From the IMG/VR virus record IMGVR_UViG_3300042922_000286, positions 1 through 64,000 of that record: a stretch of 64,000 nucleotides of DNA; one strand, given 5' to 3'. This document shows positions 5,751 through 30,006 of the stretch, in pieces. The translations under genes and the position numbers were made by a program. The first letter of the stretch is position 1, and each line of letters opens with the position of its first letter. The notes beneath the pieces were generated by a model. That model ran no database searches and was not told where the DNA came from. It saw only the letters and a program-made list of their open reading frames with translations. The stretch is from a virus. Its lineage: Duplodnaviria > Heunggongvirae > Uroviricota > Caudoviricetes.

Positions 5751-5793
5751 CTTACAATGAACCTATACGGCAGGTACTACCGTTAGTTTAGGG
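5751..5793 (-). promoter_or_regulatory. Conserved bipartite promoter-like element, copy 1 (transcribed strand: CCCTAAACT-N15-CGTATAGGTTCATTGTAAG).
   Basis: Core on plus at 5751-5769 and box AGTTTAG at 5785-5791, with an exact 15-nt spacer. The spacer contains GGTAGTACC. Confidence 0.5.
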
Positions 5794-5799
5794 CTGTAA

Positions 5800-5831
5800 T
5801 GAAAAAGTTCCCGAGAGGATATCCCGGGAAC
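5800..5831 (-). terminator. Terminator after nrdF (hairpin GTTCCCG..CGGGAAC).
   Basis: 7-bp stem at 5807-5813 and 5825-5831 around a palindromic loop, with AAAAA at 5801-5805 giving the U-run on the minus transcript. Confidence 0.5.
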
Positions 5832-5836
5832 ATTAC

Positions 5837-6865
5837 TTATACTGCTATGTCTCCAAACACATCAATGATCTCATGCTGGAAGTGCTCATCCCTGATCTTC
5901 TCCACGTTGAGTGCGAGAACATACCCGTTGCCCCGCACCGAGAAGAAGTCATGGTTGACCGTAACAGTATCAATACCGTTCAGCACAATCGGGTTAATGT
6001 CCCTGTCCGTTATGTTGAACTTTGGTTCCAACCCGAGATTGGCCAAAGCTTTATCCGCGTTGTATTTGAGGAATGTGATTACCTCATCCACCAGCTCTAC
6101 CTCAGCGTACAAATCGTGGGTATAAGTTAGCTCATTTTGGTGCAGACTGTTAAGGAGGGAGTACACATCCCTCTTTGTATCCTCCTTCTCTTCGTCAGGG
6201 ATTTTAGCAAAGGCTTCTTGTGCGTACATACCCACCAGAAGGCCGTGAATGCTTTCATCCCTGATAATTAGCCCAATGACTTCGCCAGAGGCCGTCATTT
6301 GCCCTTGACCTGCCAGATAGAGAGGATAGAAGAATCCACTATAAAACAGGTAGCTTTCCAGCAGCACAGATGCAGCCAGCGCCATATAATACTCGCGCGG
6401 GGTGAGTACGCCTAGCACGTAGCTCATCAACGCACGTCTATAATAGATGTCGATGATTTCCGTTTTACGTTGTAGGTTCGGTTGGCGGTCGCCCCATGTA
6501 AATACTTCGTTGATCTCTTCCTGTGTAAGCAGGGTGGTGAAGATGGAGCTATACGACTTGGCGTGAACCGCCTCCATAGCCCCCATGAAGTTCAACACAG
6601 CTTTGCGCTGCTCTCCCTCGGTCATGAGGGAGATAACAGGCATACCAGTGTTCGTCTGCTTCGTATCCAGCCCTGTGAGGCCCACAAGAACCCGGGAGTA
6701 TACTCTACGTTGGGCAGGCTGTAGATTGTGCCATACGATCAAATCATCGCTCACAGGGAAGTCCTTATCCAGCCAAAACTGGGCCACATTCTGATCCCAA
6801 AACTCCTGAGTATAGTCGTCCTCGGGTCTATTCCAGTTTACTGCTTTGTATTGTGTTTGCTCCAT
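5837..6865 (-). CDS. nrdF: Ribonucleotide reductase class Ib small (beta) subunit.
   Basis: Ferritin-like di-iron motifs (RDESIHG; FYSGFFYPLYL). Confidence 0.85.
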   Translation of the reverse strand: MEQTQYKAVNWNRPEDDYTQEFWDQNVAQFWLDKDFPVSDDLIVWHNLQPAQRRVYSRVLVGLTGLDTKQTNTGMPVISLMTEGEQRKAVLNFMGAMEAVHAKSYSSIFTTLLTQEEINEVFTWGDRQPNLQRKTEIIDIYYRRALMSYVLGVLTPREYYMALAASVLLESYLFYSGFFYPLYLAGQGQMTASGEVIGLIIRDESIHGLLVGMYAQEAFAKIPDEEKEDTKRDVYSLLNSLHQNELTYTHDLYAEVELVDEVITFLKYNADKALANLGLEPKFNITDRDINPIVLNGIDTVTVNHDFFSVRGNGYVLALNVEKIRDEHFQHEIIDVFGDIAV

Positions 6866-6881
6866 GTGATTAAATTCCCCC

Positions 6882-8990
6882 TTATACCGCGCAAGCTACG
6901 CATTCTGTGCTTTCCTCACCGACCGGTGCCTTAACGTCCTTTTTCTTCACTCGGGTGTAGTATAGCGATCTTAAGCCCTTTTGAGCGGCGTAGATATAAT
7001 AACTAGCCAACTTCGCGGTAGAGATGTCCTGCTGCACGAATAGAACCGTGCTGATGCCTTGATCGATATGCTCTTGAATGACCGCCACCATATCAATGAC
7101 CTTCTTCATGTCAGTGTTGTATGCCGACTTGAAGAACCACTGATTATCCGCGCAAAGATGTGGGGCAGGGTAGAAGGTCTTACTGTTCGCGTACGTACGA
7201 GTCTCAATTAGATCGACCAGCGGAAGTACGGAACTAGTCGCGTTCTGAACATAGCTGATGGATTGAGTGGGGGCGATAGCAAGGCGATAAGCATGGTACA
7301 GACCGTACTGCATAACATCGTAGGACAGAGCTTTCCAGTCGGCAGGGGTAGGGATGTAAATTCCCTCGAACAGCGCCTTTACCTTATCCGACTTAGGGTA
7401 GTAGTTATTTACAAGATACTTCTGGAAGTACGAACCGTCCGCATAGTCCGACTGATTGAAGTCCTTGAATGTTTCTTTCATGGTTATTGCGAGCTGCATG
7501 GACCGCTCAATTGAGTAATAATTCATCATCATGAAGAATGTACGGGCAAAGTCGAGGGCTTCGAACGACTCATACATAATTTTGTTCTTGGCAAGGTAGC
7601 CATGCAAATCCATAGCACCTAAGCCAATGGAGTGCAGTTCTTCATTTGCCTTTCTCACGCCCGGGGCATTGTTGATGCTTGTTTCAGCGGATACTACAGT
7701 CAGAGCATCCACACCTTCATGTACCGATTCCCGAATCTTTTTAGATTCCATGACATTCGTGATATTAAGGGAGCCGAGGTTACATGAGATATCCCGTTTG
7801 ATGATATCCTCGACGGTGTAGTCGTTAATAACCGATACCTCTTGAAGCTGCATTATCTCGGTGCAGAGGTTAGACATAAGCACCCGCCCGATACGATTCA
7901 ACGCATGCTTCTTGTTAGCGTTCGTGATGTTGAAGATGTACGGATAGCCCGACTGCATCTGAGTCTGTGCGATCTTGTTTAAGAAGTCGCGGGCGTTCAT
8001 GATAAGCTCCTTACGGATGCGAGGGTCATTAAGCAACGCATCATACATCGTATCGAAGTCAATGTCGGTCATTCTCAGGCCGTAGTGTTTTTGAATATCG
8101 TACGGGCTGAAACCGTAGAAGTCTTGATCAGCCTCGGCTATTTCGTAGAACTTCTGTGGAACTGTAAGGCCGATAGACAGTTGCTTCAAACGAATGTTAT
8201 CGTCAGCGTTGACCTTCTTCGTATCAAGCAGCCGCCCTGCGTCAATGTGGAAGATGGTCACGTAGGACGCCCCTGCGCCCTTACGCTGGCCTCCCTGATC
8301 GTAGTAGCTGAACTTCTGCTCCATCTGCTTGGCAACGCCTACGATGCCCTTAGCAGCGTTTTCCAGCCCCTTAATAGGGTCGGATAGAGCACGGAGGTTG
8401 GATAGATCGCAAGCCACCCCGCCACCGATACGGCTCAGTTGCGCCATACATGCGAGGTTATATTCGATGGAATTTGTAGTGTCGTCCATAGTCAGTAGGA
8501 AACATGAAACCATTTCTCCACGGCGAGAGCGTCCCGCGTTGAGGTAGGTAGGGGTTGCTGGTTGGTATCGCTGCTCCATCAAGGACCGAACCAGTCTCTC
8601 TGCCTTCTTCAGCCTACCTTTGCCCAAGTGAAGCGCGACAATGGCATTGTGTTCAGCAAAGCTTTCAAGGTAGGTTTTCTTATCGTTCGATTTCAGGCCG
8701 TAGTCCGTATAGAACTTGTAGGCTTGCATGAAGGACTTGAACTTGAAGTCGTAGCTATATGCGATAAGATGGATATATTCAACCTGATCTTCGGTGTATT
8801 TCTGGTGCACGTCCTCGTAGAAGTCATTCTCAACCATCCACTTGATACGCTCAGTGATATTGTTGAATTTCATTGAGCGACTTTCTACTTCCTTCATAAA
8901 CTCCACTACGGCCTCACGGTCTTTGTCCAGTTGGAAGAAGCCATCCTCTCCGCGTTGAGTAACCATGTTGTTAAGCTCGATATACTTCAA
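6882..8990 (-). CDS. nrdE: Ribonucleotide reductase class Ib large (alpha) subunit.
   Basis: 702 aa with the NLCTEIMQ active-site motif and C-terminal cysteines (ECVACAV). Confidence 0.85.
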   Translation of the reverse strand: MKYIELNNMVTQRGEDGFFQLDKDREAVVEFMKEVESRSMKFNNITERIKWMVENDFYEDVHQKYTEDQVEYIHLIAYSYDFKFKSFMQAYKFYTDYGLKSNDKKTYLESFAEHNAIVALHLGKGRLKKAERLVRSLMEQRYQPATPTYLNAGRSRRGEMVSCFLLTMDDTTNSIEYNLACMAQLSRIGGGVACDLSNLRALSDPIKGLENAAKGIVGVAKQMEQKFSYYDQGGQRKGAGASYVTIFHIDAGRLLDTKKVNADDNIRLKQLSIGLTVPQKFYEIAEADQDFYGFSPYDIQKHYGLRMTDIDFDTMYDALLNDPRIRKELIMNARDFLNKIAQTQMQSGYPYIFNITNANKKHALNRIGRVLMSNLCTEIMQLQEVSVINDYTVEDIIKRDISCNLGSLNITNVMESKKIRESVHEGVDALTVVSAETSINNAPGVRKANEELHSIGLGAMDLHGYLAKNKIMYESFEALDFARTFFMMMNYYSIERSMQLAITMKETFKDFNQSDYADGSYFQKYLVNNYYPKSDKVKALFEGIYIPTPADWKALSYDVMQYGLYHAYRLAIAPTQSISYVQNATSSVLPLVDLIETRTYANSKTFYPAPHLCADNQWFFKSAYNTDMKKVIDMVAVIQEHIDQGISTVLFVQQDISTAKLASYYIYAAQKGLRSLYYTRVKKKDVKAPVGEESTECVACAV

Positions 8991-9381
8991 TGCTTCTCAC
9001 CCCTAATGTGAATTTTTCTACATCAACATCCGACCCTGATAGTTCGAATTTCAAGATGATTGGGACACCGTACCTATCCGCTATCAGATCAGCCGCCTTG
9101 CAGTAGTTGTTCCCCCAATTTCTATTCCCACTCGACGCAACCCCACGCATGAATGTATGATTGCTTTCAAGGAACTCGCCTGTCGAAACGGCAACGCGAC
9201 CAAAGCCAGTAGTGTAAGTGACTAAAACAAAAGGTTCGTGGACCACAAGCCCCTTACCAATCTTTATGTAAGGTAACCCGGTCTTGTCTACGAACCTTTC
9301 TACGTTTCCTGTTCTTGTGTCAAATACCACTAACATAGGTCGTTGAGGTAATAGATAGTATAGAACGCAATCACTGTTCAC
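8971..9381 (-). CDS. nrdI: NrdI flavodoxin-like protein.
   Basis: MLVVFDTRTGNVERF...LVTYTTGFG...GVASSGNRNWG...FELSG match NrdI signatures. The start is uncertain: GTG at 9381 or ATG at 9336. Confidence 0.65.
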   Translation of the reverse strand: MNSDCVLYYLLPQRPMLVVFDTRTGNVERFVDKTGLPYIKIGKGLVVHEPFVLVTYTTGFGRVAVSTGEFLESNHTFMRGVASSGNRNWGNNYCKAADLIADRYGVPIILKFELSGSDVDVEKFTLGVRSIEVYRA

Positions 9382-9950: not shown

Positions 9951-9951
9951 A

Positions 9952-11061: not shown

Positions 11062-11070
11062 TCAACCACC

Positions 11071-11966: not shown

Positions 11967-12234
11967 TGTTATTCCCCCTGATTGGTAGTTTTAGATTGGC
12001 GTTGCACTTCTCACATCGACCGTATATAACTATTGGGTCGATACCGCATGTGCGGCATTTCATTACCCCGCCCCTGATGCTCCCGGGTTCCACTACAGCA
12101 GTGAATTCCACGTCTTTGACAGGTATACGCTTTTCCTCGCCTGTCTTTAGGTCTGTCAGAATCATGGTGGCGTTTTTAGCCACGAATTTCTTAGGCAATG
12201 TCATGAGTTTCTCGCTATAGCTGCGTTCGCCCAC
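11959..12234 (-). CDS. Hypothetical zinc-ribbon protein.
   Basis: CRTCG...CEKC cysteine pairs. Confidence 0.35.
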   Translation of the reverse strand: MGERSYSEKLMTLPKKFVAKNATMILTDLKTGEEKRIPVKDVEFTAVVEPGSIRGGVMKCRTCGIDPIVIYGRCEKCNANLKLPIRGNNNV

Positions 12235-12325
12235 ATTACCGCCTGTTCGAGGTTTGTCATGGCTAACGACTTCTCTCGGCTGTCAGGGCAGTTGTTGTCG
12301 ATAACATCGTACGGATTAGGCTTGC

Positions 12326-12868
12326 TCATGCTTGTAACCCCCTGTTTATACCGCGGCGAGTGTCCTCAAGATCACTGCCACGTCGAGATATTTCGCGGCT
12401 GATAGCGTAAGCGCGTTGTTCGTAGCCTTCACGGAGCGCCCGGGTCGCTGTGTACATCGACAGCGCCTCCGTATATTTCAATTCCCATTCGAGATAGAGA
12501 GGCTCACAGTATACTGAGGCGTCCCTAATCTCCCGGTTGCCTTCCTGAACAGTGTAGAGTTGCTTCTTCACCACGTCCCGCACCTCTTCGGCGGTGGAAC
12601 GGTCGATGTCAGCAATTGCCTCGCACCATCTTGCGTAGGACACCATTCCTGTCCAACGGTCAAGGAACTCACCAAGCTCGTTGTATGGAATGTTAGCAAT
12701 GCCGCCGTAGCGCCGCCGCACGTTGTCCCACTCTTGGAACAAGTCCGTTCCGGTTACTGCATCCTCAGGCTTGGGAGGTACAGGCAACCCTGCTCGTTGG
12801 ATTTTGTCCATCGTGGCCCTACGACTGACGAATAGCTTGACGCCTTCGACAATCTCATATCGCTGCAT
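12326..12868 (-). CDS. Hypothetical protein.
   Basis: ORF with coding-like composition. Confidence 0.35.
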   Translation of the reverse strand: MQRYEIVEGVKLFVSRRATMDKIQRAGLPVPPKPEDAVTGTDLFQEWDNVRRRYGGIANIPYNELGEFLDRWTGMVSYARWCEAIADIDRSTAEEVRDVVKKQLYTVQEGNREIRDASVYCEPLYLEWELKYTEALSMYTATRALREGYEQRAYAISREISRRGSDLEDTRRGINRGLQA

Positions 12869-13882: not shown

Positions 13883-14155
13883 TTACGCGAGGGAGGCAAA
13901 TTCGTGCTCAAACTCGCGCTGACGCTCGGCCATCTTCTCGCGGTTGGGGAGATTCACAAGACCCAGTTGGGCGAGGCGGCGAAGGCTCCGGGTGATGGAC
14001 TCAGCAGACGTTGCACGACTGAGTACATCTACGTTCGTTGCGCTGTCATAGATCGTCCAATAGTAGCGGAGAAGCTCGTTTCGGTCGAACAGCAGGTTAG
14101 GGAATGCAGTTACCAGTTCCAGCAGATTCTTACGGATGTTTTTGTGATTTTTCAC
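13883..14155 (-). CDS. Hypothetical protein.
   Basis: The ORF-track start at 14209 would translate the conserved promoter core itself. The GTG at 14155 is preferred because it has RBS GGAGTGA. Confidence 0.35.
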   Translation of the reverse strand: MKNHKNIRKNLLELVTAFPNLLFDRNELLRYYWTIYDSATNVDVLSRATSAESITRSLRRLAQLGLVNLPNREKMAERQREFEHEFASLA

Positions 14156-14183
14156 TTTTGATTCACTCCGTTTCGTGTGTTGT

Positions 14184-14227
14184 TTGCTTACACTGAACCT
14201 ATACGCCACGACCTCGGCTCAGTTTAT
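14184..14227 (-). promoter_or_regulatory. Conserved bipartite promoter-like element, copy 2 (ATAAACT-N15-CGTATAGGTTCAGTGTAAGCAA).
   Basis: Core at 14184-14205 and box AGTTTAT at 14221-14227 with a 15-nt spacer. Confidence 0.5.
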
Positions 14228-14232
14228 ATGCC

Positions 14233-15072: not shown

Positions 15073-15607
15073 CCCCCTTGTCGTAGAACACTCCGTATTT
15101 CAAGAAGTTCTCTCGTAATTTGATAATCGCTGCGTCTGATTCGGCGCTTATTTTTGTTCGTTCTTCCGAAGGCGAATTATACGACCAGAACCACTCATAC
15201 TCCTGTCCAACGTACTCTGCATAGCCGCCGTACGCGAACTCGTACAAGTAGCAGTCGTTCTCCGTACATTTGATCCGTGCCTCGCAGAGTGTATGGCTCA
15301 TATAGTCAGTCCATTGGGACATCTTACTGCCGCAAACAGGGCAATGATCACGATCGAACACTACGCAACCGTGCTCATCAACTCTGCCCCACGCAGGTAG
15401 AGGAACTACTTTCCAATGCTTTGCCGCATCCTGCCGAGATGTCCCAAGTGTCTTAACCATCACTCTCTTGTGCAGCTCCCGGTCGTAATACCAGTAGTGG
15501 ACGGACACCCCGAATCTGGAGTACTGTACTGTCCCGAATGTACCGGGATTTTCGATACTTTCAACTACCGCCCCGTATTTCATATACAAGCCTCCTGCGG
15601 GCCTCAT
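14999..15607 (-). CDS. Hypothetical Cys-rich protein.
   Basis: HCPVCGS...CTENDC. The likely start is the internal M (MKYGAV). It overlaps its neighbour. Confidence 0.3.
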   Translation of the reverse strand: MRPAGGLYMKYGAVVESIENPGTFGTVQYSRFGVSVHYWYYDRELHKRVMVKTLGTSRQDAAKHWKVVPLPAWGRVDEHGCVVFDRDHCPVCGSKMSQWTDYMSHTLCEARIKCTENDCYLYEFAYGGYAEYVGQEYEWFWSYNSPSEERTKISAESDAAIIKLRENFLKYGVFYDKGDGGVESKEACAAGKEGTKRQRQNS

Positions 15608-16064
15608 TCGCTAGGACGTCGGCCCTCTCGTTTAATTCGTTTCCGTTATGCCCTCTGACCCACTTCCAGACCACATTGAACTTCTTGCTTAGTTCGTGGA
15701 TAGGCTTGATAAGGTGAATATTCTTTATGGGAATCTGTACGCCTGGCATCTTTGACCAACCATATTTCGCCCATTTGTAGGCCCACCCGCCGCCAGCACG
15801 GAAGGAATTGACCACGTACTGGCTGTCACTAACAACGATGATGGTATGCTTTAATGCGGTATCGTTCAGGGCTTTTAACGCCTCATACGCTGCCATAAGC
15901 TCCATTTCGTTGTTGGTAGAGTACGGCTTGTTTCCAGATATCTCTTTGATGTGTTCCCCATCAGGGGTGGTTAGCTTTAAGATCGCCGCCCACCCTCCGA
16001 TGCCGTTGTCCTTGCCTTGATTCGGGCAAGAACCGTCAGTGTAGATTTCAATCACGCAGGTCAC
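15561..16064 (-). CDS. rnhA: Ribonuclease HI.
   Basis: IYTDGSC...NNEMELMAAYEAL...VSDSQYVVN...WKWVRGHNGNELNERADVLA match the RNase H catalytic DEDD residues and motifs. Confidence 0.85.
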   Translation of the reverse strand: MTCVIEIYTDGSCPNQGKDNGIGGWAAILKLTTPDGEHIKEISGNKPYSTNNEMELMAAYEALKALNDTALKHTIIVVSDSQYVVNSFRAGGGWAYKWAKYGWSKMPGVQIPIKNIHLIKPIHELSKKFNVVWKWVRGHNGNELNERADVLANEARRRLVYEIRGGS

Positions 16065-16710: not shown

Positions 16711-19067
16711 GCTGCGTCCTCCTGTTCTTCATCGTCCTCATCGTCATCATCGAAGTCGGAGCCTTCACCGCTAATTTTCTTGGTGGCTTGGCGAACGAGG
16801 TAGAGTTCCTCTAAGTCCTCGTTCTTCATCCTCTGGCCCCACTTCGCGCCTACCTCGATGTCGGACTTCAAGCCACAGTCAAGCGGGAGGGCGTTACACA
16901 TAACATCAGCGATCCGCTTGAGTGCATCTATGCCAATACCTTCGGGTACGTCATATATGATCTCGTCGTGCACCCACAGTACGATACGAACATCCAGCTC
17001 TTTGAGCAGTGGTTGCAATTGAACCGAGGCGATCTTAACCATGTCAGCCGAGGAGCCTTGGATAACCGCATTGATCCCTTGACGGAACCCGCGCTGCACC
17101 TTCCAGAACTCTTCTGCTTTCATTTCTTCGTATACTCGCCGCTTACGGCCCAACATCGTCTCGGTGAAGTGGCCTTTCTGCATCTTGAAGCGTTGCTGCT
17201 GCATCCACCGCTGAACGCCCGGGTATTGAGCGAAGTAAGCGTCGATATACTCTTGCGCTTCGTCTACCGTGATTTCTAGCGTTTCTGCCAGCTTGTACTT
17301 GCTCATGCCGTAGATGATACCGAAGTTGATAACCTTCGCGTCTTTACGGGTCTTCTCCGCGTAGATGCCGCGCTTAACATGATCTTTAAGCTCATCAGCG
17401 TCCTTAGTACGGATATCGCCCGCCTCGAAGTGCTTGTCGATATACTCAGCATCGTGGAGCTTCTCTTCAACAAGCTTTCCGTCTTGGTCGAGGAACAAGT
17501 CCTTCATGCCGCGGTAATACTCGAAGTCCCCGTAGTTGCAAGCCCATTCAGGGAACTTGGCATTGAACATCCCACTCGCCGTCAAACTGTGGATGTCCAG
17601 ACCGTCCCGGTAAGCGTTCAACAGCACCTCGTCCTGTGATACGTGAGCAAGTACCCGAAGCTCCTGCTGAGAGAAGTCAATGGAGGCCAGTAAGCGTCCC
17701 GAATCGCTGATAAACGCATTACGAATCAGCCCGCCGACCTTCGCCGGGATTTGTTGCAGGTTCGGGGAGTTTGAGGACATGCGCCCTGTTTTTGTGCCGA
17801 CCGAATTGAAGGATGTATGGATACGCCCCTCAACTACCGCTTTGGGAAGCTTATCGGCAAATGCAGTGGTCAGCTTGTTCTTCTCACTGTACTCAATCAT
17901 CAGGTCGATAACCTTGTGGTGTTTGCGCAGCTTCTTCATGGTCTTCTTATCCGTCGAGTTCGGCTTCTCTTCGTTTACTCTAGGAAGCCCTAGCTTGACG
18001 TATAAAGCCTCTGCCTTCTGAGCAGGTGCATTGAGATTAATAACCCCTGTGTAAGCCCATATCTGCTGCCTGAGGCGTTCCAGATCGGCATGTAGCTCGA
18101 CTGCGACCTTGTTGACTAGGTAATTCTCATCCAAAGCAACTCCGTGCGCTTCTGCGTCGATTACGATGTGTAGGAATGGCATCTCAATGTCAAACATTAA
18201 GTAGTGAAGAACACTCAGCTTCGGATTCGACAGATGCTTCATCTGGAACTCGTAAAGCTTGTAGGTCAGTTCTGTATCGTACGTTGCGTAGTAACCCGCC
18301 AAACTGCCGAGGCGCGTCACAGGATCGTACAGAACAGGCACCTTGTCGAATGTAGTCTTGCCGAAGAGTGAGCCGAACTTCTCAGCCTCAACCTTGAGAT
18401 AGATCGGAGCAATATCCTTGAGCCGCGCCGACTTATTCTCATCAAGCAGTTTGCAAGCAACCATCGTATCGAAGAACCATTCGATGAAGATGCCTAGCCA
18501 ATTGCGTATGACGTGACTATCGAACTTGCAGTTATGACCGAGGAACTTCTTGCTCCTGTCTTCTAGCAGAGGTTTCAGCTTCTTGATCACAAGCTCCTTA
18601 GGTAAGCACTTTACATAGTCGTGACCGATGAGGGCATCCCGAACCCTGTTGCCCTCAGCATCGTACACGTCACTCGGGATAAGTGAATCGTCATCGATGT
18701 TGTCCTTATGCTTCAACGGGATGTAGTAGCCGCGGTGTGGGGCATAGAACGAGATGCCAACGATTTCATCCTTCCATGCATGTAAGCCCATCGTCTCTGT
18801 ATCGACGGCAAGTACGGGCTGCTGCCATAGCCACTCCATGCACTCATCGAGTTGTTCGGGTGTCCATACCATGAAGTAGTGTTCGGGAAGCTTTGTCTGC
18901 GCCGCCATCGCATGAATTTGAGTTTCCTTCTTGGTCATCTTCTTAGCTGACTTAGGCTTCTTCTCCTTGACTACTTCCTCAGACTTCTTACGCCGCCGCG
19001 TTTTCTTTTCCTCAGCACCGTCAAGATTCAGTTCGACCTTCTTCCTTGGCATTGGCTTCGCCTCCAA
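16707..19067 (-). CDS. Family A DNA polymerase (Pol I-like) with a 3'-5' exonuclease domain and an acidic C-terminal tail.
   Basis: Exo I (VDTETMGLH), motif A (LASIDFSQQELRVLAH), motif B (RKDAKVINFGIIYGMS), motif C (VHDEIIYDV), and an acidic DDDDEDDEE tail. Confidence 0.9.
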   Translation of the reverse strand: MEAKPMPRKKVELNLDGAEEKKTRRRKKSEEVVKEKKPKSAKKMTKKETQIHAMAAQTKLPEHYFMVWTPEQLDECMEWLWQQPVLAVDTETMGLHAWKDEIVGISFYAPHRGYYIPLKHKDNIDDDSLIPSDVYDAEGNRVRDALIGHDYVKCLPKELVIKKLKPLLEDRSKKFLGHNCKFDSHVIRNWLGIFIEWFFDTMVACKLLDENKSARLKDIAPIYLKVEAEKFGSLFGKTTFDKVPVLYDPVTRLGSLAGYYATYDTELTYKLYEFQMKHLSNPKLSVLHYLMFDIEMPFLHIVIDAEAHGVALDENYLVNKVAVELHADLERLRQQIWAYTGVINLNAPAQKAEALYVKLGLPRVNEEKPNSTDKKTMKKLRKHHKVIDLMIEYSEKNKLTTAFADKLPKAVVEGRIHTSFNSVGTKTGRMSSNSPNLQQIPAKVGGLIRNAFISDSGRLLASIDFSQQELRVLAHVSQDEVLLNAYRDGLDIHSLTASGMFNAKFPEWACNYGDFEYYRGMKDLFLDQDGKLVEEKLHDAEYIDKHFEAGDIRTKDADELKDHVKRGIYAEKTRKDAKVINFGIIYGMSKYKLAETLEITVDEAQEYIDAYFAQYPGVQRWMQQQRFKMQKGHFTETMLGRKRRVYEEMKAEEFWKVQRGFRQGINAVIQGSSADMVKIASVQLQPLLKELDVRIVLWVHDEIIYDVPEGIGIDALKRIADVMCNALPLDCGLKSDIEVGAKWGQRMKNEDLEELYLVRQATKKISGEGSDFDDDDEDDEEQEDAA

Positions 19068-19754: not shown

Positions 19755-19780
19755 TGGTCATTACCTCGCTTTGATTTAAT

Positions 19781-19824
19781 TTGCTTACACTGAACCTATA
19801 CGCGACCAGATCAGACCAGTTAAG
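19781..19824 (-). promoter_or_regulatory. Conserved bipartite promoter-like element, copy 3 (CTTAACT-N15-CGTATAGGTTCAGTGTAAGCAA).
   Basis: Core at 19781-19802 and box AGTTAAG at 19818-19824 with a 15-nt spacer. Confidence 0.5.
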
Positions 19825-21704: not shown

Positions 21705-21750
21705 GTTCTCATTTCCCCTTTGCGAGTGTGTTAGTTGTACAGGCGTTATC

Positions 21751-21795
21751 GCCTTACACTGAACCTATACGACAAGGGTAGGGGTGAGTTTAGGG
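21751..21795 (-). promoter_or_regulatory. Conserved bipartite promoter-like element, copy 4 (CCCTAAACT-N15-CGTATAGGTTCAGTGTAAGGC).
   Basis: Core at 21751-21771 and box AGTTTAG at 21787-21793 with a 15-nt spacer. Confidence 0.5.
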
Positions 21796-21819
21796 CGTCT
21801 GTGGAAGCTTTCAGGCAAA

Positions 21820-22068: not shown

Positions 22069-22632
22069 TCACATCTGGTTATATTTGGACTTGATCTTCG
22101 ACCATATCTGTGACATTCGGGACTTAGTTACACCAATCACCTTGGCGATCTCGACAAACTCGTAACCTTCCACATATAACTGGAAGATTTGCTTCTCCCG
22201 GTCTGTCAGCCCCATATTGTTCATGACATCCATCATGACTTCGGCGTTCTGATAACCGTAGTCAATAGAGCCGACTTGAAGCGTAGATCGCTCGTCACTA
22301 CCGAGCTCACTTGGGTCATAATTAACTACGATCTCGTCAGCATTTACTACCATGAGATTCTTGCCACTTCCGCACTTGCGCAGGCAGTCACGGATCATAT
22401 TCTCGATAACGTGGTCAACGTAAGTGCTCATTCTACTCGTCTCGCTATTGTAGAGATCAAGCGATCGATATACCTTGAAGACAGTTTCTTGTACAACGTC
22501 CTCAGTGTCCATTCCTGCGAAGCGCTTAGAGCCGATCTTCGCCGCAGTGTGTTTTTGCACTTTTTCTAGGAACAGGTCCATGTCGCCCGTAGCGAACAGT
22601 TCGTCATAGGTCATTGTCGTATTCATTGTCAA
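22069..22632 (-). CDS. Small phage-encoded sigma factor (ECF-like/group 4 sigma-70 family).
   Basis: Region 2 (DVVQETVFKVYRSLDLYN...YVDHVIENMIRDCLRK) and a region 4 HTH (REKQIFQLYVEGYEFVEIAKVIGVTKSRMSQIW). Confidence 0.65.
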   Translation of the reverse strand: MTMNTTMTYDELFATGDMDLFLEKVQKHTAAKIGSKRFAGMDTEDVVQETVFKVYRSLDLYNSETSRMSTYVDHVIENMIRDCLRKCGSGKNLMVVNADEIVVNYDPSELGSDERSTLQVGSIDYGYQNAEVMMDVMNNMGLTDREKQIFQLYVEGYEFVEIAKVIGVTKSRMSQIWSKIKSKYNQM

Positions 22633-22657
22633 GGTTTCCTCCCCAATATTCGCAGCA

Positions 22658-23752
22658 TCACTTGCTTAGTTTAGGTCTTTTCAGTTCTTCTATAACACTA
22701 TTAGGAACCTGACTCCTAAAGGTTAAGAATGGTACGACCTTGATCTTCTTCATCATTTTGAATTTCAGAAGATCATTGGCATCTTTATAGGGGAGTTCCT
22801 CTGTATCTACGGTGTCGATGCCCCAATGTCCACCCGGGTACATAACCACATTCACCTTGATCGGCGTCTTGGATAAAAGTTCGTACGTCTTGAGCGTACA
22901 ATCAACCCCCGCCTTGTCGTTATCGAAGAAGAGGTTGACGGTTTTAATCCCGGCCAGTAGGAACTCTCGAAGCTGTTCTTCGAAGAGAATCCGTCCAAGA
23001 ATAGCTACGGCGGGCAACCCTGACTCGTAACAAGACATCGTATCGGTTTCCGACTCGTTCACGAATACTTCGGTTATCTTATATGGGCTTTGTGAGAGGT
23101 AGTACAGCCCATACAGGATATCCTTCTTGTATATGTTCTTCTCGTTGAGGAAGGATTTCGTCAAGACGTTCCTTCTCTTGATGAAGCGAACCAGCCCTTT
23201 ACTCGTTCTGACCGGGAACGTAATGGAATTGGATTGCTCATCGTACCCGATCTCGTATTTACGTAAGGTGCGATCACTGAATCCGCGACTGGTAATATAT
23301 GAATGCTTCTTGCTTGTGTACTTTGTCACCTCGGATTCAGGTAAAGACCGTTTCCTGTCCAGCTTGTTCCCCCCATCAATGATACTACGTATGTCCAACT
23401 TTTTTCTGTCTTTTACGGACAGCACGATGTAGTGTTTTTGAATGTAGTGTAGACCGTGAATCTCTGACGGTAGCTCCATGACGTGAGCGATTAGCTTGCC
23501 GAGACTTCCTGACTCACCGCACCCAAAACAGTTGAACGTATACGGGTACTGTGTGAGGATACCGAAGGACGGCGATTCCTCTTCGTGGTACGGACAGCAG
23601 CACATTATGTTCTCACCTTTGTTTGATGTCTTGTCAAAGGCGCTAACATTATACAGCACTTGTTTGCCCGATCTCCACGACAACATTAAGTCGTCAAGCA
23701 TCTCTTCTACGTCAATATGTACCGCCGAAAGTATATCCGACAATTCCCACAC
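22658..23752 (-). CDS. DNA primase (DnaG-like: CHC2 zinc finger plus TOPRIM).
   Basis: CCPYHEEESPSF...CFGCGESGS zinc-binding domain; TOPRIM EV..ESETDTMSC...FFDNDKAG. The start is uncertain (GTG at 23752 or TTG at 23743). Confidence 0.8.
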   Translation of the reverse strand: MWELSDILSAVHIDVEEMLDDLMLSWRSGKQVLYNVSAFDKTSNKGENIMCCCPYHEEESPSFGILTQYPYTFNCFGCGESGSLGKLIAHVMELPSEIHGLHYIQKHYIVLSVKDRKKLDIRSIIDGGNKLDRKRSLPESEVTKYTSKKHSYITSRGFSDRTLRKYEIGYDEQSNSITFPVRTSKGLVRFIKRRNVLTKSFLNEKNIYKKDILYGLYYLSQSPYKITEVFVNESETDTMSCYESGLPAVAILGRILFEEQLREFLLAGIKTVNLFFDNDKAGVDCTLKTYELLSKTPIKVNVVMYPGGHWGIDTVDTEELPYKDANDLLKFKMMKKIKVVPFLTFRSQVPNSVIEELKRPKLSK

Positions 23753-23800: not shown

Positions 23801-23829
23801 TTGACAAATATAGCACCCTGTTCATAATC
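23801..23829 (+). promoter_or_regulatory. Consensus sigma-A-type promoter on the plus strand (TTGACA-N17-CATAAT), facing the minus-strand promoter and antisense to upstream genes.
   Basis: TTGACA at 23801-23806, a 17-nt spacer and CATAAT at 23824-23829. The two TTGACA boxes form an inverted repeat, TTGACA..N24..TGTCAA. Confidence 0.5.
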
Positions 23830-23836
23830 CTGTCAA
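23807..23836 (-). promoter_or_regulatory. Sigma-A-type promoter on the minus strand (TTGACA-N18-TATATT) driving the primase-sigma operon; candidate early promoter.
   Basis: On the minus strand TTGACA is at 23836-23831 and TATATT at 23812-23807. Confidence 0.55.
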
Positions 23837-23908
23837 TAAATTATTTCGACACAAAGTAATGCCAAATACCTATGCTGTGTCGAATGATACTAACTAGACT
23901 ATTAATAA

Positions 23909-23953
23909 CCCCTACACTAACCATATACGATAGGTACTACCATAAGTTTAGGG
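23909..23953 (-). promoter_or_regulatory. Conserved bipartite promoter-like element, copy 5 (CCCTAAACT-N15-CGTATATGGTTAGTGTAGGGG).
   Basis: Core at 23909-23929 and box AGTTTAG at 23945-23951 with a 15-nt spacer. The spacer contains GGTAGTACC. Confidence 0.45.
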
Positions 23954-23969
23954 CAGGGGTTAAATTATT

Positions 23970-25064: not shown

Positions 25065-25343
25065 TCACACTTCACTGGATACAACACGGTAGCGATACAA
25101 TCGTTCAGAGATTTTTGTCATTTCAATATCGACAGTTCCCGCGCTGTGATTTATATGATAGGTCCAAGGCTCAATGATTCCAGTTATAACAAAGAGCCTG
25201 TTGGAGTATATCTCCCCATCGATTAGCTTCCACACATGCTCCCGGGCTAGGTGTAGCCGCCCGTTGAACTTTGGAACTACTTTGCCCGTTGTGCGATTCT
25301 TTATAACAAGAGTATCCTTATCAGAGAGCCGAAGGTAACCCAT
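25065..25343 (-). CDS. Hypothetical protein.
   Basis: ATG at 25343 with RBS AAGGGGGATG. Confidence 0.35.
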   Translation of the reverse strand: MGYLRLSDKDTLVIKNRTTGKVVPKFNGRLHLAREHVWKLIDGEIYSNRLFVITGIIEPWTYHINHSAGTVDIEMTKISERLYRYRVVSSEV

Positions 25344-25357
25344 TCTTTACATCCCCC

Positions 25358-25492
25358 TTATTCCTCATCGTCATCATCATCTGCTTCTTCATCTTGTTCG
25401 CTTTCTAGCGCCCCACAGTCGGGGCAAAAGCTCTCCTGACAGCAGGGACACTTCTCCCACCACGTCTTACATTCCCTACACCGGTCGCTCAC
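25358..25492 (-). CDS. Small zinc-ribbon protein with an acidic tail (not in the ORF track).
   Basis: GTG start at 25492 preceded by AGGAGG. Translation: VSDRCRECKTWWEKCPCCQESFCPDCGALESEQDEEADDDDDEE. Confidence 0.4.
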   Translation of the reverse strand: MSDRCRECKTWWEKCPCCQESFCPDCGALESEQDEEADDDDDEE

Positions 25493-25622
25493 CCTTATCA
25501 GCCTCCTGTTCATCAGGTATTAGATCGCCGCCGCAGAGGGGACAGTATCCGTCCCCGCAGCTTAGGCAACGCCTTACGAATTTCGTTCCGCAGTTCGCGC
25601 AGGTCAGTGGTATCGCGGTCAT
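25476..25622 (-). CDS. Small zinc-ribbon protein.
   Basis: Internal ATG at 25622 gives MTAIPLTCANCGTKFVRRCLSCGDGYCPLCGG.... The long N-terminal extension in the ORF track overlaps its neighbour and is likely spurious. Confidence 0.35.
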   Translation of the reverse strand: MTAIPLTCANCGTKFVRRCLSCGDGYCPLCGGDLIPDEQEADKGERPV

Positions 25623-25816
25623 TGAACTACAGACTCTTCCAAGATTAGGATGTTGACTGCTTGCACTTTCAGTAGTTCGGAGGGAAGCAGTTCGGCAGCT
25701 AGGGTGTGCCATGCCTCTTCCCATACCGCAGCGAAATCGTCTCCGTCGTAACAAGTAAATACCCCTGTTACGATATTCTCACGGTCGGTTGTATAGGTCA
25801 GTCTGAATGTCTTCAT
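25619..25816 (-). CDS. Hypothetical protein.
   Basis: ORF in operon context. Confidence 0.3.
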   Translation of the reverse strand: MKTFRLTYTTDRENIVTGVFTCYDGDDFAAVWEEAWHTLAAELLPSELLKVQAVNILILEESVVQ

Positions 25817-25819
25817 AGA

Positions 25820-26059
25820 CTAGAGTCCCCTTCCATGGATGTGTAGTTCGCTCTGATCGTCATCCTCTACGATTTCGCCAGTAGTAGTCCATTCGGCATC
25901 GTCGCCACTCATGAACTCATGAGGCAACTCGTCAGCACTCTGAATTTCCAGTCGCAGCTTTTCTTCGGTAGTGGCACCCTCAGGGTAGTACTCCGCGGGC
26001 GGCAACTCAAACTCCCGAGTGCATGTAATAGTTATTTTCACTTTTGCCATTTGTCCCAT
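25820..26059 (-). CDS. Hypothetical acidic protein.
   Basis: ORF in operon context. Confidence 0.3.
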   Translation of the reverse strand: MGQMAKVKITITCTREFELPPAEYYPEGATTEEKLRLEIQSADELPHEFMSGDDAEWTTTGEIVEDDDQSELHIHGRGL

Positions 26060-26064
26060 CCCCC

Positions 26065-26310
26065 TTATTGCCCCATACGATCAGGGCTTGTCGTCCAAGA
26101 GTAGTCACTACTATCCTTTTCGTACTGCTTGAACCGCTTAACAATCTGCTCCTGCAAGTACTTCTGTCGATCATCCGAGTTCATGAATGCTTCGTAAGGG
26201 AAGTACCCGATCATTTTCGCCATTCGGATAGTGAACTTGTCAATGCCCTCCAAGGTTTCTTTAGGAACCTCTTTCAGGATGGCCATCATTACGCCTCTGC
26301 TTCGGTACAT
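26065..26310 (-). CDS. Hypothetical protein.
   Basis: Start chosen at the internal ATG at 26310 with RBS AAGGGGGAG. This removes the 89-nt overlap with the helicase gene. Confidence 0.35.
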   Translation of the reverse strand: MYRSRGVMMAILKEVPKETLEGIDKFTIRMAKMIGYFPYEAFMNSDDRQKYLQEQIVKRFKQYEKDSSDYSWTTSPDRMGQ

Positions 26311-26323
26311 AGAATACTCCCCC

Positions 26324-27580
26324 TTAAAATACCATCTCATCTTCGGTCGTCGGTTCATATACCCCTGTATCGATGTCCGCTTTGAGGTATACATCCTCGT
26401 CCTTCTTACCACTGCGGTTCTTCTTCAACGACAGTTTGAATGTATCGCCAAGTCTACGGAGGGTGATCGCTCTTGTGGCCTTCTGTGCTGGGTTATCACT
26501 CTCTTGGATTTGATCGATCTCAGGGGTAGCTTGGGAGTTCTTACGAGCGTCCTTCGCCGCCTCCCGGCCCGCCTGTGCTAGAAGCATCGTCGGAGTCTTG
26601 GTTAGTAGGTTCATATCCCGTATCTCCCGAGTAACATTCACGATACGGCGTCGAATATCCCAATCCCCTTTGATATCCATGACGTCGTACAACTGGTCAA
26701 CGACTAGAAACGCGGGTTTCTCACTAGCTACGATGCCGTGAATGTCGGAGGTCTTGAACGGTGATCCACCATTCGACTCTTGGGATAGGATAAGGAACCC
26801 TGCGGACTCCTTCTGCAACTGCTCCAAGTATTCGAGGTATATCTGTGGGTCAGCCAGCTTACCATTCCTGAGCGCCATATTCGAGAAATGAGCCTTCATA
26901 CTATCGAGTCGGTATGAAACCTCAAGCTCCGACATCTCCGTTGATATAAAGGCAACGGGGCGGTTAATGTTGGCCTTCTTCAATGCCATCCAGACGTGGA
27001 AAGCAAAGAAGCCGCCGATTAAGGACTTACCTTCATTAAGGCGTCCCGCTAGAAGAATGAGATCGTCTTCCAACCATCCCCCTGTTAGCTCGTCAAGATC
27101 AGGTATGCCTGTAGGTAATCCAGCCATACCTTCCTTGCCGTGTTTCTTCATATATTCGTCGTAGCGACTGACTGCACTCTTTACCCAATCGTATGTGACC
27201 GCTTTGTTCGCATACTTCTGTAGGAGCGTGTCAATATCCCCACGAAGCTGGATCATGGATTCTAGCGTCTTGCCGTCATTGAGAAGCCCCGCGCCCCGTT
27301 CAAGAGCAGGAGCATATTCCGTGTAAGCCTTTTGCTCCTTTACCTGCTGGACAAGGTAGTCTACGGAGTCAAGATCAGCAAGTTTACGGAACTCATCGAA
27401 CTCGACAGCAACAAGATCAGGGGTCGGCAGAGCACCCCTGTTGGAGTTGCGGAAATCCTCGACCCACTTCACAACATCTTCCAAGGCAAAGAAGTAGGAC
27501 TGGTCGATTCCGTTCTTCGCCATGAATGCAGGGTCTTTGGTTACGAGCCAATGGTTGATAAGTTGCAGTTCTTCAATCAA
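26324..27580 (-). CDS. DnaB-family replicative DNA helicase.
   Basis: Walker A (LAGRLNEGKSL), Walker B (FLVVDQLYDV) and a DnaB-like N-terminal domain. TTG start. Confidence 0.8.
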   Translation of the reverse strand: MIEELQLINHWLVTKDPAFMAKNGIDQSYFFALEDVVKWVEDFRNSNRGALPTPDLVAVEFDEFRKLADLDSVDYLVQQVKEQKAYTEYAPALERGAGLLNDGKTLESMIQLRGDIDTLLQKYANKAVTYDWVKSAVSRYDEYMKKHGKEGMAGLPTGIPDLDELTGGWLEDDLILLAGRLNEGKSLIGGFFAFHVWMALKKANINRPVAFISTEMSELEVSYRLDSMKAHFSNMALRNGKLADPQIYLEYLEQLQKESAGFLILSQESNGGSPFKTSDIHGIVASEKPAFLVVDQLYDVMDIKGDWDIRRRIVNVTREIRDMNLLTKTPTMLLAQAGREAAKDARKNSQATPEIDQIQESDNPAQKATRAITLRRLGDTFKLSLKKNRSGKKDEDVYLKADIDTGVYEPTTEDEMVF

Positions 27581-28046: not shown

Positions 28047-28762
28047 CCGAACAGCCTCCTATCTTTACCACCAAGCTCGATAGGCATGGCGTTCATCAAC
28101 ATCCGAGAGAATATTCTAGAACCCATGGTTTTCTTCAACTGCTCCAACCCGAAGTTCGATGTGTAGAGCGTGGCAAGCCCGTTGTTCACTCGATAGTTCA
28201 GCAGGAGGTACGTCTGTTCTAAGGCAAAGTCGGATAGTGTCCCTGCCCCCACGTCATCAAGCATCAGGAACGGGGTATCCCGCATTTGCTGCATAGTTTC
28301 GACCACATCAGCGTCCTCCCTGCGGTAACGTAGATCGTCTATGATGGTGGCGAACTCAACAAACATACCGAGCGGTAATTCGAAGTCAAACCTTCTGCCC
28401 GTGCAGGTCTTGTAGATGAAGTGATTCAGAAGGGTAGCTCCCGCGTACGTTTTGCCTGTCCCGGTTCCCTGATTAAAGATCAGGAAGTTCGTCCCTCTAT
28501 CCACCACCGCCACAATACCTTCTACTGCGGGCTCGATGTCGTTATAGAATGCGATCTTGTTGTCCTCATCCACTCTGAAGTTGTGGATATTGGCCGTCAG
28601 GTACACCTTCGGGATGCGTGATAGTTCGAGCGCCTTGTACAGGCGGTATTGGGCATTACACCAGCTAACAGGGGCATCAGGGCGTAATGGAACTTTTCCG
28701 CTGTACGCATTGCAGAATGGAGCAGCTATGCATGACTCACAAAACTCATACGGCGGCATCAT
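28043..28762 (-). CDS. DnaC/DnaI-like AAA+ helicase loader.
   Basis: Walker A (NQGTGTGKTYAG) and Walker B (LMLDDVG); adjacent to the helicase. Confidence 0.7.
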   Translation of the reverse strand: MMPPYEFCESCIAAPFCNAYSGKVPLRPDAPVSWCNAQYRLYKALELSRIPKVYLTANIHNFRVDEDNKIAFYNDIEPAVEGIVAVVDRGTNFLIFNQGTGTGKTYAGATLLNHFIYKTCTGRRFDFELPLGMFVEFATIIDDLRYRREDADVVETMQQMRDTPFLMLDDVGAGTLSDFALEQTYLLLNYRVNNGLATLYTSNFGLEQLKKTMGSRIFSRMLMNAMPIELGGKDRRLFG

Positions 28763-29886
28763 TGAACACCTCCGAGAAGCTGCGCCCGCCGCCTTGCCGC
28801 CAAGTCTGCGAACTCATCTTTCGTTTCCTGCGAATCCTCCTGTGGTGCAAGGTTGCTTTGCTTCTTGCGGTCGAAGCTACCCGTGTTAAGGTACTGGGTA
28901 ATCATCCCTTGTACAAAGTTGGAGCAGAAGTTCGAGATGCCTTTAGGGGAGAAGAAGTCGCTATCAATATAAACCTCGATTCTTCGTTTAAGAAGCTCCC
29001 TGCCGTTGTACGGCTTACCCTCTACTTCCATCTCTCCATACAGGTCGATCAGCTTCTTTAACTGCCCGCGTTCTTTCATGCCAGCGCCGATCATCGGTAG
29101 TTTCATTACTTCGAGGTACTTATCCGCAAAGTAAGAAGTGAAGTGATTGGTGTTCCAGTCCTCGACAGGCACATTCCGCCATGAAGTATGCTTCCTACCG
29201 CTCGATGCCTTTTCAGGCTTGCTCGGGTCAGCTTCCCGCCGAATCTCATCGGCGTTCACAGGTGCAGCGGTTATACGTCTAGGCATCCCGGGGACATGTT
29301 GTGGTATTTCAGGTTGAGGTTTGTAGACCACAGGCTCCGACACAGGCAGCAGTGTTTCCCCTGCAAAGTACGCTTGGAAGAACTTTTCAATCGTCGCTTC
29401 ATGCCCTACAGGGTTTTTGTTTGCCTTGTCACATAGCGAGGTTTTCTTATAGGTTTCAAGAGCCTTGAAGGTATTCTCACCATGTTCCTTCCTGTACTGC
29501 TCCAATACCTCATGAACAAACTCAGAGTGTGCTACCGTCGGTATAGTGTGTAGCTCTGACAAGTGATACACGTAATTCCCGCCACCCGTCCGCTCAAGCG
29601 CAATTAACCTTGCATCACGCAGTTCGTAGGTGAACTTTCTTATCGTGTTCTTGCACCACCCTAGTTGTAGACGAAGTGCCAACTGACTAGGGAAGCAGTC
29701 ACGCTTACCGTTGAACGCATACTCCGAGATGTTAGTGTAAAGTTGCTTTGCTTCCGACGACAGGAATAGACAGCGGTTCACCTTACTGTAGGTAAGAGAA
29801 TGACCGCGGTTTGGCCCTTCGTTATAGAGGAACTCTTTTTCGGACGAAGCGAACTTTAAGCTAAACTCGTTGTATTCGTTATCCAT
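28759..29886 (-). CDS. Putative replication initiation/replisome organizer protein (DnaD-like winged-helix N-terminus).
   Basis: Position upstream of the loader and helicase, and a winged-helix-like N-terminal region. Weak. Confidence 0.4.
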   Translation of the reverse strand: MDNEYNEFSLKFASSEKEFLYNEGPNRGHSLTYSKVNRCLFLSSEAKQLYTNISEYAFNGKRDCFPSQLALRLQLGWCKNTIRKFTYELRDARLIALERTGGGNYVYHLSELHTIPTVAHSEFVHEVLEQYRKEHGENTFKALETYKKTSLCDKANKNPVGHEATIEKFFQAYFAGETLLPVSEPVVYKPQPEIPQHVPGMPRRITAAPVNADEIRREADPSKPEKASSGRKHTSWRNVPVEDWNTNHFTSYFADKYLEVMKLPMIGAGMKERGQLKKLIDLYGEMEVEGKPYNGRELLKRRIEVYIDSDFFSPKGISNFCSNFVQGMITQYLNTGSFDRKKQSNLAPQEDSQETKDEFADLAARRRAQLLGGVQ

Positions 29887-29911
29887 TTATCAAGCTCCCT
29901 TCTGTGCCCCT

Positions 29912-29955
29912 TTGCTTACACTTGCCCTATACGACCTCCGCGAACATTAGTTAAG
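29912..29955 (-). promoter_or_regulatory. Conserved bipartite promoter-like element, copy 6 (CTTAACT-N15-CGTATAGGGCAAGTGTAAGCAA).
   Basis: Core at 29912-29933 and box AGTTAAG at 29949-29955 with a 15-nt spacer. It lies 25 nt upstream of the initiator gene. Confidence 0.5.
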
Positions 29956-29976
29956 TTCGTTTATTTACATTTTCAT

Positions 29977-30006
29977 TTGACATAGGTAGTACCTGCGTTG
30001 TATGCT
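29977..30006 (+). promoter_or_regulatory. Sigma-A-like promoter for the recombinase gene (TTGACA-N18-TATGCT) with GGTAGTACC in the spacer.
   Basis: TTGACA at 29977-29982, TATGCT at 30001-30006 and the operator-like 9-mer at 29985-29993. Confidence 0.45.

Follow-up and report, generated by a model that had tools for sequence, protein, structure and literature searches.

The DNA analyzed here (the window) comprises 64,000 nucleotides (nt), positions 1 to 64,000 of the IMG/VR virus record IMGVR_UViG_3300042922_000286, and several of its predicted promoters harbor a short palindromic motif, GGTASTACC (S being G or C), which ahead of the gene for an XerD-like recombinase (xerD) extends to an 11-bp palindrome. 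In our estimate this motif is very probably a real, selected cis-regulatory element, and its most likely role is that of a repressor operator, to which we assign a probability of roughly 0.6. We propose that AGGTA-N-TACCT would be the protein-bound operator of a temperate phage or phage-plasmid resembling the Brevibacillus phage Jenst, with a stable copy between the -35 and -10 of the host-type xerD promoter and extra copies gained in this lineage, at the spacer centers of two promoters resembling those of extracytoplasmic function (ECF) sigma factors and at about +1 to +10 of the ParM-operon promoter. A two-fold symmetric (dimeric) protein would cover DNA needed by RNA polymerase, leading to steric repression; the recombinase, the partition operon and both sigma-factor operons would be turned down together, with one regulator gating the transcriptional cascade via both sigma-factor operons.

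A copy of the window in Logan contig SRR35179700_36577 (locus L026) adds 8.2 kb leftwards, window position p being position 18103+p of that contig; over the 12.7 kb compared, 2 bases differ, and both fall in a poly-G run at window 1-10. The window and its left extension amount to 72,167 nt read in total, with a non-coding share of 6.9%.

Copies of the motif and their placement

Exact matches to GGTASTACC in the window number four (5773-5781, 23933-23941, 29985-29993 and 57511-57519) vs. about 0.39 expected, and 0 of 100 shuffles reached that count. These matches confirm the original prediction that a near-palindromic 9-mer lies inside the spacers of two copies (1 and 5) of a phage-type promoter and of the xerD promoter, with the correction that the positions first given for the former two, 5772-5780 and 23932-23940, were one base short. 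The genome-wide count proposed at the time does show enrichment of the 9-mer, but its fourth, coding occurrence had been missed. Similarly, the xerD copy was described as being in opposite orientation, which is true of the plus strand, where the 10-mer at 5772-5781 and 23932-23941 reads AGGTACTACC, but not relative to transcription, along which all three in-window promoter copies are the identical 10-mer GGTAGTACCT. Exact copies of this 10-mer are found at 5772-5781, 23932-23941, 29985-29994 and, in the left extension, at L026 15523-15532 (about window -2867). The match at 57511-57519, which is GGTAGTACC followed by A on the plus strand and lies inside a minus-strand gene (57329-58618), reads GGTAGTACCA and hence is not the 10-mer; given that about 0.4 copies are expected by chance, we regard it as probably a chance occurrence outside the system.

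Sites 1 and 5 (GGTAGTACCT, minus strand, 5772-5781 and 23932-23941) are situated at the center of the 15-nt spacers of promoter copies 1 and 5, respectively, the center of the 9-mer being position 8 of 15 in the AAACT-to-CGTATA spacer of each. On the minus strand, copy 1 has its -35 AAACT at 5785-5789, its -10 CGTATA at 5764-5769 and its spacer at 5770-5784; for copy 5, upstream of the genes for primase and a sigma factor (sigma-187), the corresponding positions are 23945-23949, 23924-23929 and 23930-23944. At the predicted sigma-70-type promoter of xerD (TTGACA-N18-TATGCT, plus strand, 29977-30006, 10/12 matches; -35 at 29977-29982 and -10 at 30001-30006), the palindrome AGGTA-G-TACCT (site X, 29984-29994) is separated from the -35 by 1 nt and from the -10 by 6 nt. 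The copy in the left extension lies 7 nt 3' of the -10 of the predicted ParM-operon promoter (TTGACG-N18-TATCAT), at about +1 to +10 and about 20 nt before the start codon of an actin-like ALP/ParM gene. The motif-bearing promoters are therefore four across 33 kb, those of parM, dut...sigma-283, primase/sigma-187 and xerD, and both that are of the phage type head operons holding a sigma-factor gene. The set first proposed to be under joint control (dut, primase-sigma and xerD) does carry the motif throughout, but the set is wider, including the ParM-like operon outside the window.

The phage-type promoter element, CTAAACT-N15-CGTATAGGTTCAGTGTAAGCAAA, occurs in six minus-strand copies in the window (copies 1-6 at 5747-5794, 14183-14230, 19780-19821, 21749-21796, 23913-23954 and 29911-29958), and the spacers of the other four are, as had been stated, unrelated to the motif. 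In copies 1 and 5 the 10-mer is identical while the other 5/5 spacer positions and the sequence downstream of the -10 differ, which argues against a recent promoter duplication. Because the motif is present in two promoter classes, the ECF-like copies 1 and 5 and the sigma-70-type promoters of xerD and the ParM operon, it is not part of the consensus of one sigma factor. We also considered it as an element of the promoter consensus and rejected this assignment, as it is found in only 2/6 copies and in sigma-70-type promoters as well; with its absence from the promoter family in most relatives, this upholds the view of the motif as an added module.

Other assignments were tried and rejected. 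As the -35 or -10 of a second promoter on either strand, the motif has no consistent partner hexamer by inspection; as the core of an Xer/dif site, where inverted arms of about 11 bp would flank 6-8 bp, it comprises 5-bp arms around one base, with no second inverted copy within 6-8 bp in the stretches read; as a parC iteron, expected in tandem arrays of about 10-11 bp periodicity beside parM, it stands in single copy per locus, with a distinct RTGTTATGAM array beside the ParM site.

Location in non-coding DNA

The 10-mer is present 4 times in 72,167 nt vs. 0.10 expected. In a control with the same Markov model, several coding words were equally over-represented, so that frequency alone is weak evidence. 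The telling evidence is location in non-coding DNA rather than genome-wide frequency: 4/4 copies of the 10-mer fall within the non-coding 6.9% (P ~2e-5), all one-mismatch variants are in coding DNA, and in an unbiased count of 10-mers within non-coding DNA a count of four was reached only by promoter-consensus words and GGTAGTACCT. A similar frequency in coding regions, named beforehand as the outcome that would speak against an operator, was not seen.

Conservation of the motif in relatives

In a close relative (L013/L028, 96% identical) and in the contig L023 (99.96%) the sites are identical, these loci being too near to inform. Two contigs of an NCBI metagenome assembly (L085 and L086; GCA_034680565.1) encode XerD proteins 54% and 53% identical to that of the window, with GC contents of 42% vs. 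49.5%. The xerD promoter of the window reads TTGACA-T-AGGTAGTACCT-GCGTTG-TATGCT, those of L085 and L086 read TTGACA-C-AGGTATTACCT-ATCCAT-TATGAT and TTGACA-C-AGGTACTACCT-ATCAAC-TATGAT, and common to all three is TTGACA-N-AGGTA-N-TACCT-N6-TATG. In the three-way alignment the palindrome arms are invariant like the -35, the -10 and the ribosome-binding site, while the center base (G, T or C) and the following six bases vary, a pattern of variation that has the appearance of a footprint of the two-fold symmetric recognition site AGGTA-N-TACCT.

A second orthologous promoter is available in L029 (Ga0618279, a contig from the Joint Genome Institute), whose sigma-283 is 69% identical to that of the window. 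Between the genes for the small subunit of ribonucleotide reductase (RNR) and dUTPase, its dut promoter reads GTAAACT-GA-GGTACTACC-ATAG-CGTATAGG, with the 9-mer again lying within a spacer of 15 nt, but in inverted orientation and displaced by one base; the rest of this spacer is unrelated to that of the window. Since the motif is kept at the orthologous xerD and dut promoters while flanks and center vary, its conservation and symmetry mark it, as judged from these alignments, as a selected dyad-symmetric cis-element laid over core promoters. We conclude that the xerD-promoter site is the evolutionarily stable core and that the sigma-operon and parM sites are lineage-specific additions.

The 20.8-kb L029 locus harbors two further exact 10-mers, whereas a random 10-mer would be expected about 0.04 times (counting both strands, with bases equally frequent). 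One of the two is intergenic and precedes the recA promoter, and one L029 copy lies about 27 nt before a -35, outside the core promoter. At L029 2804-2833, inside a called 120-residue open reading frame (ORF) and about 220 nt upstream of nrdI, we noticed TAGGTAGTACCTGCG, an exact copy of the palindrome and its flanks and as such a 15-mer identical to the xerD-promoter site of the window; this copy could represent an internal promoter or a relic of rearrangement. Two other phage-type promoters (L026 12806-12833 and L029 17957-17987, both minus strand) display partial copies equivalently placed in the spacer, AAGAGTAGTCCCGCA and AGCCTACTACCGTGG, each agreeing at 7/10 positions, and these may be weak or decayed operators.

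Farther away, the spacer of the xerD promoter of phage Jenst, GGTCACATAACCCGTGC, is without AGGTA-N-TACCT, and a word search in the first 100 kb of the Jenst genome disclosed no equivalent repeated palindrome. The spacers of relatives, searched for an analogous shared word, yielded only weak 7-mers (TAAACCA in L041) and one kept block, CTGATCAAGG. This block, which contains GATC, is kept in the 3' part of the spacer of one orthologous promoter at about locus position 5600 in L031-L044 (prophages of the Paenibacillus amylolyticus group), with the 5' five bases varying; it may be a different lineage-specific spacer module, the evidence being suggestive, not conclusive. Phage and plasmid collections gave no nucleotide match to the window, and the plasmid collection was without the family. 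When IMG/VR was scanned by pattern for promoter-embedded copies of the motif, only chance matches without promoter signature, or nothing, came back, and protein-guided scans of it with XerD and ParM returned no useful relatives; a metagenome scan with DnaB found two distant 30%-GC contigs, both without the motif.

Evaluation of the operator reading

The operator reading of the original prediction is supported at the level of sequence, in that the motif is promoter-confined, occupies two promoter classes and is kept in relatives while spacer bases diverge. As is typical of operators, it overlaps (predicted) core promoters, is enriched in non-coding DNA and is conserved at orthologous promoters amid drift, and, as in a dispersed regulon, the same short site is found in several unlinked promoters of maintenance and developmental genes. 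Inversion and a 1-nt shift are tolerated, and so occlusion fits better than phase-dependent activation; the copy at the ParM operon, being downstream of the predicted -10, has the classic position of a repressor site. The same tolerance sets the motif apart from operators of the MerR type, as do its spacers of 18 bp and 15 nt vs. 19-20 bp, and no MerR-family match was obtained among the proteins scanned (Pfam, PHROGs). We infer binding by a protein, its dimeric state and repression, in addition to the reality of the promoters and their sigma assignment.

Several observations weigh against this reading. All promoters discussed here are predictions from sequence. In L085 and L086 the xerD-promoter copy is the only one in 12-14 kb, and their primase promoters are without the motif; 28 loci around sigma-283 homologues (50-62% identity), covering 566 kb, contain one match, which is coding, and L001-L011 contain none. 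The near absence from the 28 loci implies that the motif is restricted to a subclade. No classical repressor emerged when the accessible ORFs (~72 kb) were scanned against Pfam and PHROGs, and the AlphaFold model of a helical 89-residue ORF (13883-14152) is of low confidence (predicted local distance difference test score, pLDDT, 55). With half-site centers 6 bp apart, an 11-bp palindrome is short for a classical helix-turn-helix dimer, and in all five imperfect sites the center G is on the side of the flanking T (GGTAGTACCT), a constancy that hints at asymmetric recognition. Finally, a second, strong promoter of the primase/sigma-187 operon, of the host (sigma-70) type (TTGACA-N18-TG-n-TATATT, minus strand, 23807-23836), has no motif, so the factor alone cannot silence that operon. 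For this reason the factor is unlikely to be the sole repressor of lysogeny, and a role in feedback or timing is equally possible.

Candidate binding proteins and alternative explanations

Homologues of KorA, KorB, C1 and MrpR were sought in the ~72 kb and none was found; XerD resembles MrpR only in having the general recombinase fold. Small ORFs at 25065-26412, among which those at 25065-26310 had been suggested as binders, are not conserved in L085/L086, two loci in which the xerD site is retained. Near xerD, the DNA-binding proteins that the window and L085/L086 have in common are limited to XerD itself, a replication organizer and sigma-187; the replication organizer (28759-29886, 375 residues), which is divergently transcribed, is 45% identical in L086 and matches HTH_36, and no clustered origin-like array of the motif was seen. 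A candidate ParR of 86 residues, the only protein seen that resembles ribbon-helix-helix (RHH) proteins, more probably binds the adjacent 10-bp iterons than the motif.

The recombinase gene (30041-30880, plus strand; Pfam Phage_integrase 1.4e-40 and SAM_1 7.7e-21) encodes a protein in which the catalytic R, K, HxxR, H and Y are visible. Between the -10 and the start codon of xerD, overlapping the ribosome-binding site, there is a dif-like sequence, TGTGCTCATAA-TAAATA-TTATGGGAGGA (30006-30033, plus strand), with 19/28 positions identical to what we take to be the sequence of E. coli dif. Its inner part, CATAA-N6-TTATG, occurs once in 72 kb and is kept in L085/L086. This arrangement fits the Xer/dif family, and the arms of the dif-like site are unlike the GGTA palindrome; the site is likely the recombinase's own target, distinct from the palindrome, and could serve dimer resolution or integration at the host dif.

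A rather unlikely alternative is that the palindrome is an architectural or accessory site where an HU/IHF-like protein or an Xer accessory factor aids Xer recombination, with an activating or architectural function elsewhere. Plasmid Xer sites (cer, psi) and attP do employ accessory DNA-binding proteins, and TF1 of phage SPO1 is a site-preferring homologue of HU. Consistent with such a role, the conserved copy is 11 bp upstream of the dif-like site, itself kept in L085/L086, a protein of the HU family (2725-3024, minus strand; Pfam 4.9e-18) is encoded in the operon downstream of site 1, and one L029 copy is outside a core promoter; however, 3/4 copies are far from any dif-like sequence, placement within a spacer or at +1 is unfavorable for activation, and HU-like genes are found family-wide but the motif is not.

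We also consider it unlikely that the binding protein is the XerD-like recombinase, acting additionally as a repressor of its own gene and of the other three promoters in the manner of MrpR. MrpR has a tyrosine-recombinase fold and represses via a 15-bp element repeated in about 9-10 promoters of phage SPbeta, and integrases can repress their own synthesis (PMC10516654). The only copy conserved across lineages is that in the recombinase's own promoter, and XerD is one of few nearby DNA-binding proteins conserved in L085/L086. Contrary to this idea, all catalytic residues are kept, the enzyme has a separate dif-like target with arms (..CATAA / TTATG..) unlike GGTA, and each arm of about 11-13 bp is bound by one monomer of a tyrosine recombinase, so that a 5-1-5 palindrome misfits two monomers. 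A broader conjecture, to which we attach an equally low probability, is that a single master regulator of a phage-plasmid of Firmicutes couples maintenance (ParM, XerD and the dif-like site) to the lytic sigma cascade, and that this regulator could be an intact XerD moonlighting; if true, MrpR, a degenerate repressor with the recombinase fold, would have a counterpart that is an active enzyme.

It is quite improbable that the motif is a target of modification or cleavage by a methyltransferase or endonuclease, or is read by a global regulator of the host. A short palindrome with a free center base is what type II enzymes typically recognize, the phage encodes an HNH endonuclease, and a GATC-containing block is kept in the orthologous spacer of a sister group. 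Confinement to promoter cores, at a fixed promoter position across lineages, is nevertheless not expected of a modification target, and a host factor would need to exist in the hosts of phages of both 42% and 49.5% GC and yet be irrelevant to most relatives.

We give very little credence to the idea that the motif has no function and reflects chance or inheritance from duplicated promoter copies, for although it is short, has one coding copy, is matched in Markov over-representation by coding words and has partial look-alikes in two other spacers that could reflect common promoter ancestry, its 10-mers are 4/4 non-coding, reside in non-homologous promoter classes, are untouched by the spacer differences between copies 1 and 5, of which 5/5 fall outside the 10-mer, and are conserved at the xerD promoter at ~53% XerD identity with diverged flanks and at the dut promoter of L029 despite inversion.

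Promoters and genomic setting

Promoters of the type TTAAC/TAAAC, 15-16 nt, CGTATA...GTG recur in relatives with GC contents of 30-50%, and AAC-N16-CGTA is a signature of ECF (sigma-W-like) promoters. Sigma-187 (minus strand, 22069-22632), a phage sigma factor of 187 residues with sigma-70 regions 2 and 4 only, would be the obvious candidate to read the phage-type promoters. The element in the window corresponds to a published "promoter-like motif" that occurs about 20 times in phages Jenst and SecTim467 and was reported without sigma assignment (PMC4909266). This promoter family, CTAAACT-N15-CGTATAGG..GTGTAAG, has a further location at 1438-1506, and a variant with a 14-nt spacer is located ahead of the holin and endolysin genes.

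Intrinsic terminators directly precede 3/6 of the phage-type copies, including copy 1 (terminator at 5807-5831), which sits between the gene for the RNR small subunit and a 145-residue ORF followed by dUTPase, and is predicted to drive the 145-residue ORF, dUTPase, dTMP kinase, SLT and HU-like genes. This operon (1834-5719, minus strand), lying downstream of site 1, comprises the 145-residue ORF, dUTPase, a 113-residue ORF, dTMP kinase, SLT, the HU-like gene and sigma-283 (1834-2664, minus strand; regions 2-3-4), after which come the holin and endolysin genes. Read-through from copy 1 probably reaches sigma-283. Between the HU-like gene and sigma-283 there is a strong GC-rich hairpin of 11 pairs (minus strand, 2688-2715), with a weak T tract after it, and a possible role for it is attenuation of this read-through.

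The operon downstream of site 5 (22069-23752, minus strand) encodes the primase (22658-23752) and sigma-187. All of promoter copy 5, motif included, is flanked by an 8-bp inverted repeat, TAACCCCT / AGGGGTTA, at 23906-23913 and 23955-23962. Downstream of this copy, at 23801-23836, two overlapping divergent sigma-70-like promoters (each 11/12) form a TTGACA...TGTCAA palindrome, and a similar dual arrangement is present in L085/L086.

Almost all genes of the window are on the minus strand, the sole plus-strand gene being that of the XerD-like tyrosine recombinase. The left half is devoted to replication and nucleotide metabolism (RNR, RecA, Pol I, DnaB, an IstB-like loader, primase, dUTPase, dTMP kinase, HU-like protein and two sigma factors), and the right half codes for large structural proteins. 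A 42-residue ORF at window ~12201-12329 (L026 336-464) has a Pfam match to Acb2_Tad1_hairpin, a hairpin domain like that of anti-CBASS/Thoeris sponges, the phage carries an HNH endonuclease gene, and no known RNA families were found in the window or L026.

The nearest named phages are Jenst and SecTim467 of Brevibacillus, with primases 36% identical, and the gene set of Jenst matches in having a replication initiator, a partition protein, XerD, several sigma factors and an HU-like protein. Many Paenibacillus and Brevibacillus genomes contain homologues of sigma-283, some of them chromosomal and others on contigs of 115-125 kb, and a plasmid of 120,923 bp (Paenibacillus sp. S-38) also carries one; given their presence in chromosomes and on a plasmid, this phage group is temperate, or at least able to reside in cells. 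Just left of window position 1 lies a plasmid-type maintenance module (L026 12665-20831), comprising a replication-initiator-like HTH_36 gene (L026 13462-14187) beside the actin-like ALP/ParM gene (L026 14427-15503), the candidate parR downstream of the latter (L026 14170-14430; 86 residues with an RHH-like N-terminus) and, upstream of it, an array of 10-bp periodic iterons, RTGTTATGAM, with spacing of 10/20/30 (L026 ~15560-15800). This module, together with relatives that are both chromosomal and plasmid, suggests a phage-plasmid lifestyle.

Comparison with known systems

Phages and prophages of the Jenst type, ~100-125 kb in size, occur widely among Paenibacillus and Brevibacillus, integrated and at least once as a plasmid, and a single short site linking the recombinase, the partition operon and two sigma-factor operons offers a concrete handle on their regulation. 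The motif also illustrates that an operator can slot into the non-contacted spacer of an ECF-type promoter and be gained or lost by lineage while the promoter stays fixed.

In the IncP plasmid RK2, KorA and KorB bind palindromes of 12-13 bp (with a free center in the case of KorB) that overlap or abut core promoters at many promoters on one replicon, thereby coordinating replication, partition and other backbone operons. The motif described here is likewise short, dispersed and laid over core promoters, but its sequence differs and it belongs to a phage of Firmicutes; neither a KorA nor a ParB-like gene was recognized, and partition is of the ParM/ParR type, with iterons of its own. The C1 repressor of the phage-plasmid P1 acts at many dispersed single operators controlling replication, recombination-related and late-activator genes, its sites being asymmetric and 17 bp long. 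Dispersed single sites are common to both systems, whereas the motif here is palindromic and no C1 homologue was seen. Small dimeric proteins such as the RHH protein omega of pSM19035 and those of the MetJ type recognize repeats or palindromes of 7-8 bp, in arrays of at least 2 units, at promoters for copy control, partition and stability; the spacing of the half-sites here would suit one RHH dimer, but there is a single copy per locus rather than an array.

The element SPBRE of SPbeta, a large temperate phage of the Bacillus group, was spotted in silico before it was established that the master repressor MrpR uses it as operator (PMC10516654), and both it and our motif are short repeated elements dispersed in promoters. 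In contrast to SPBRE and MrpR, our motif is a palindrome of 9-11 bp and the XerD-like protein appears catalytically intact. The motif published for Jenst and SecTim467 (PMC4909266) comes from the same phage group and is a promoter motif, not an operator within the spacer. We regard the resemblance to the dispersed-operator regulons of KorA/KorB, P1 C1, omega and SPBRE-MrpR as a functional one; what is proposed here is an ordinary kind of gene switch, with no new principle of regulation.

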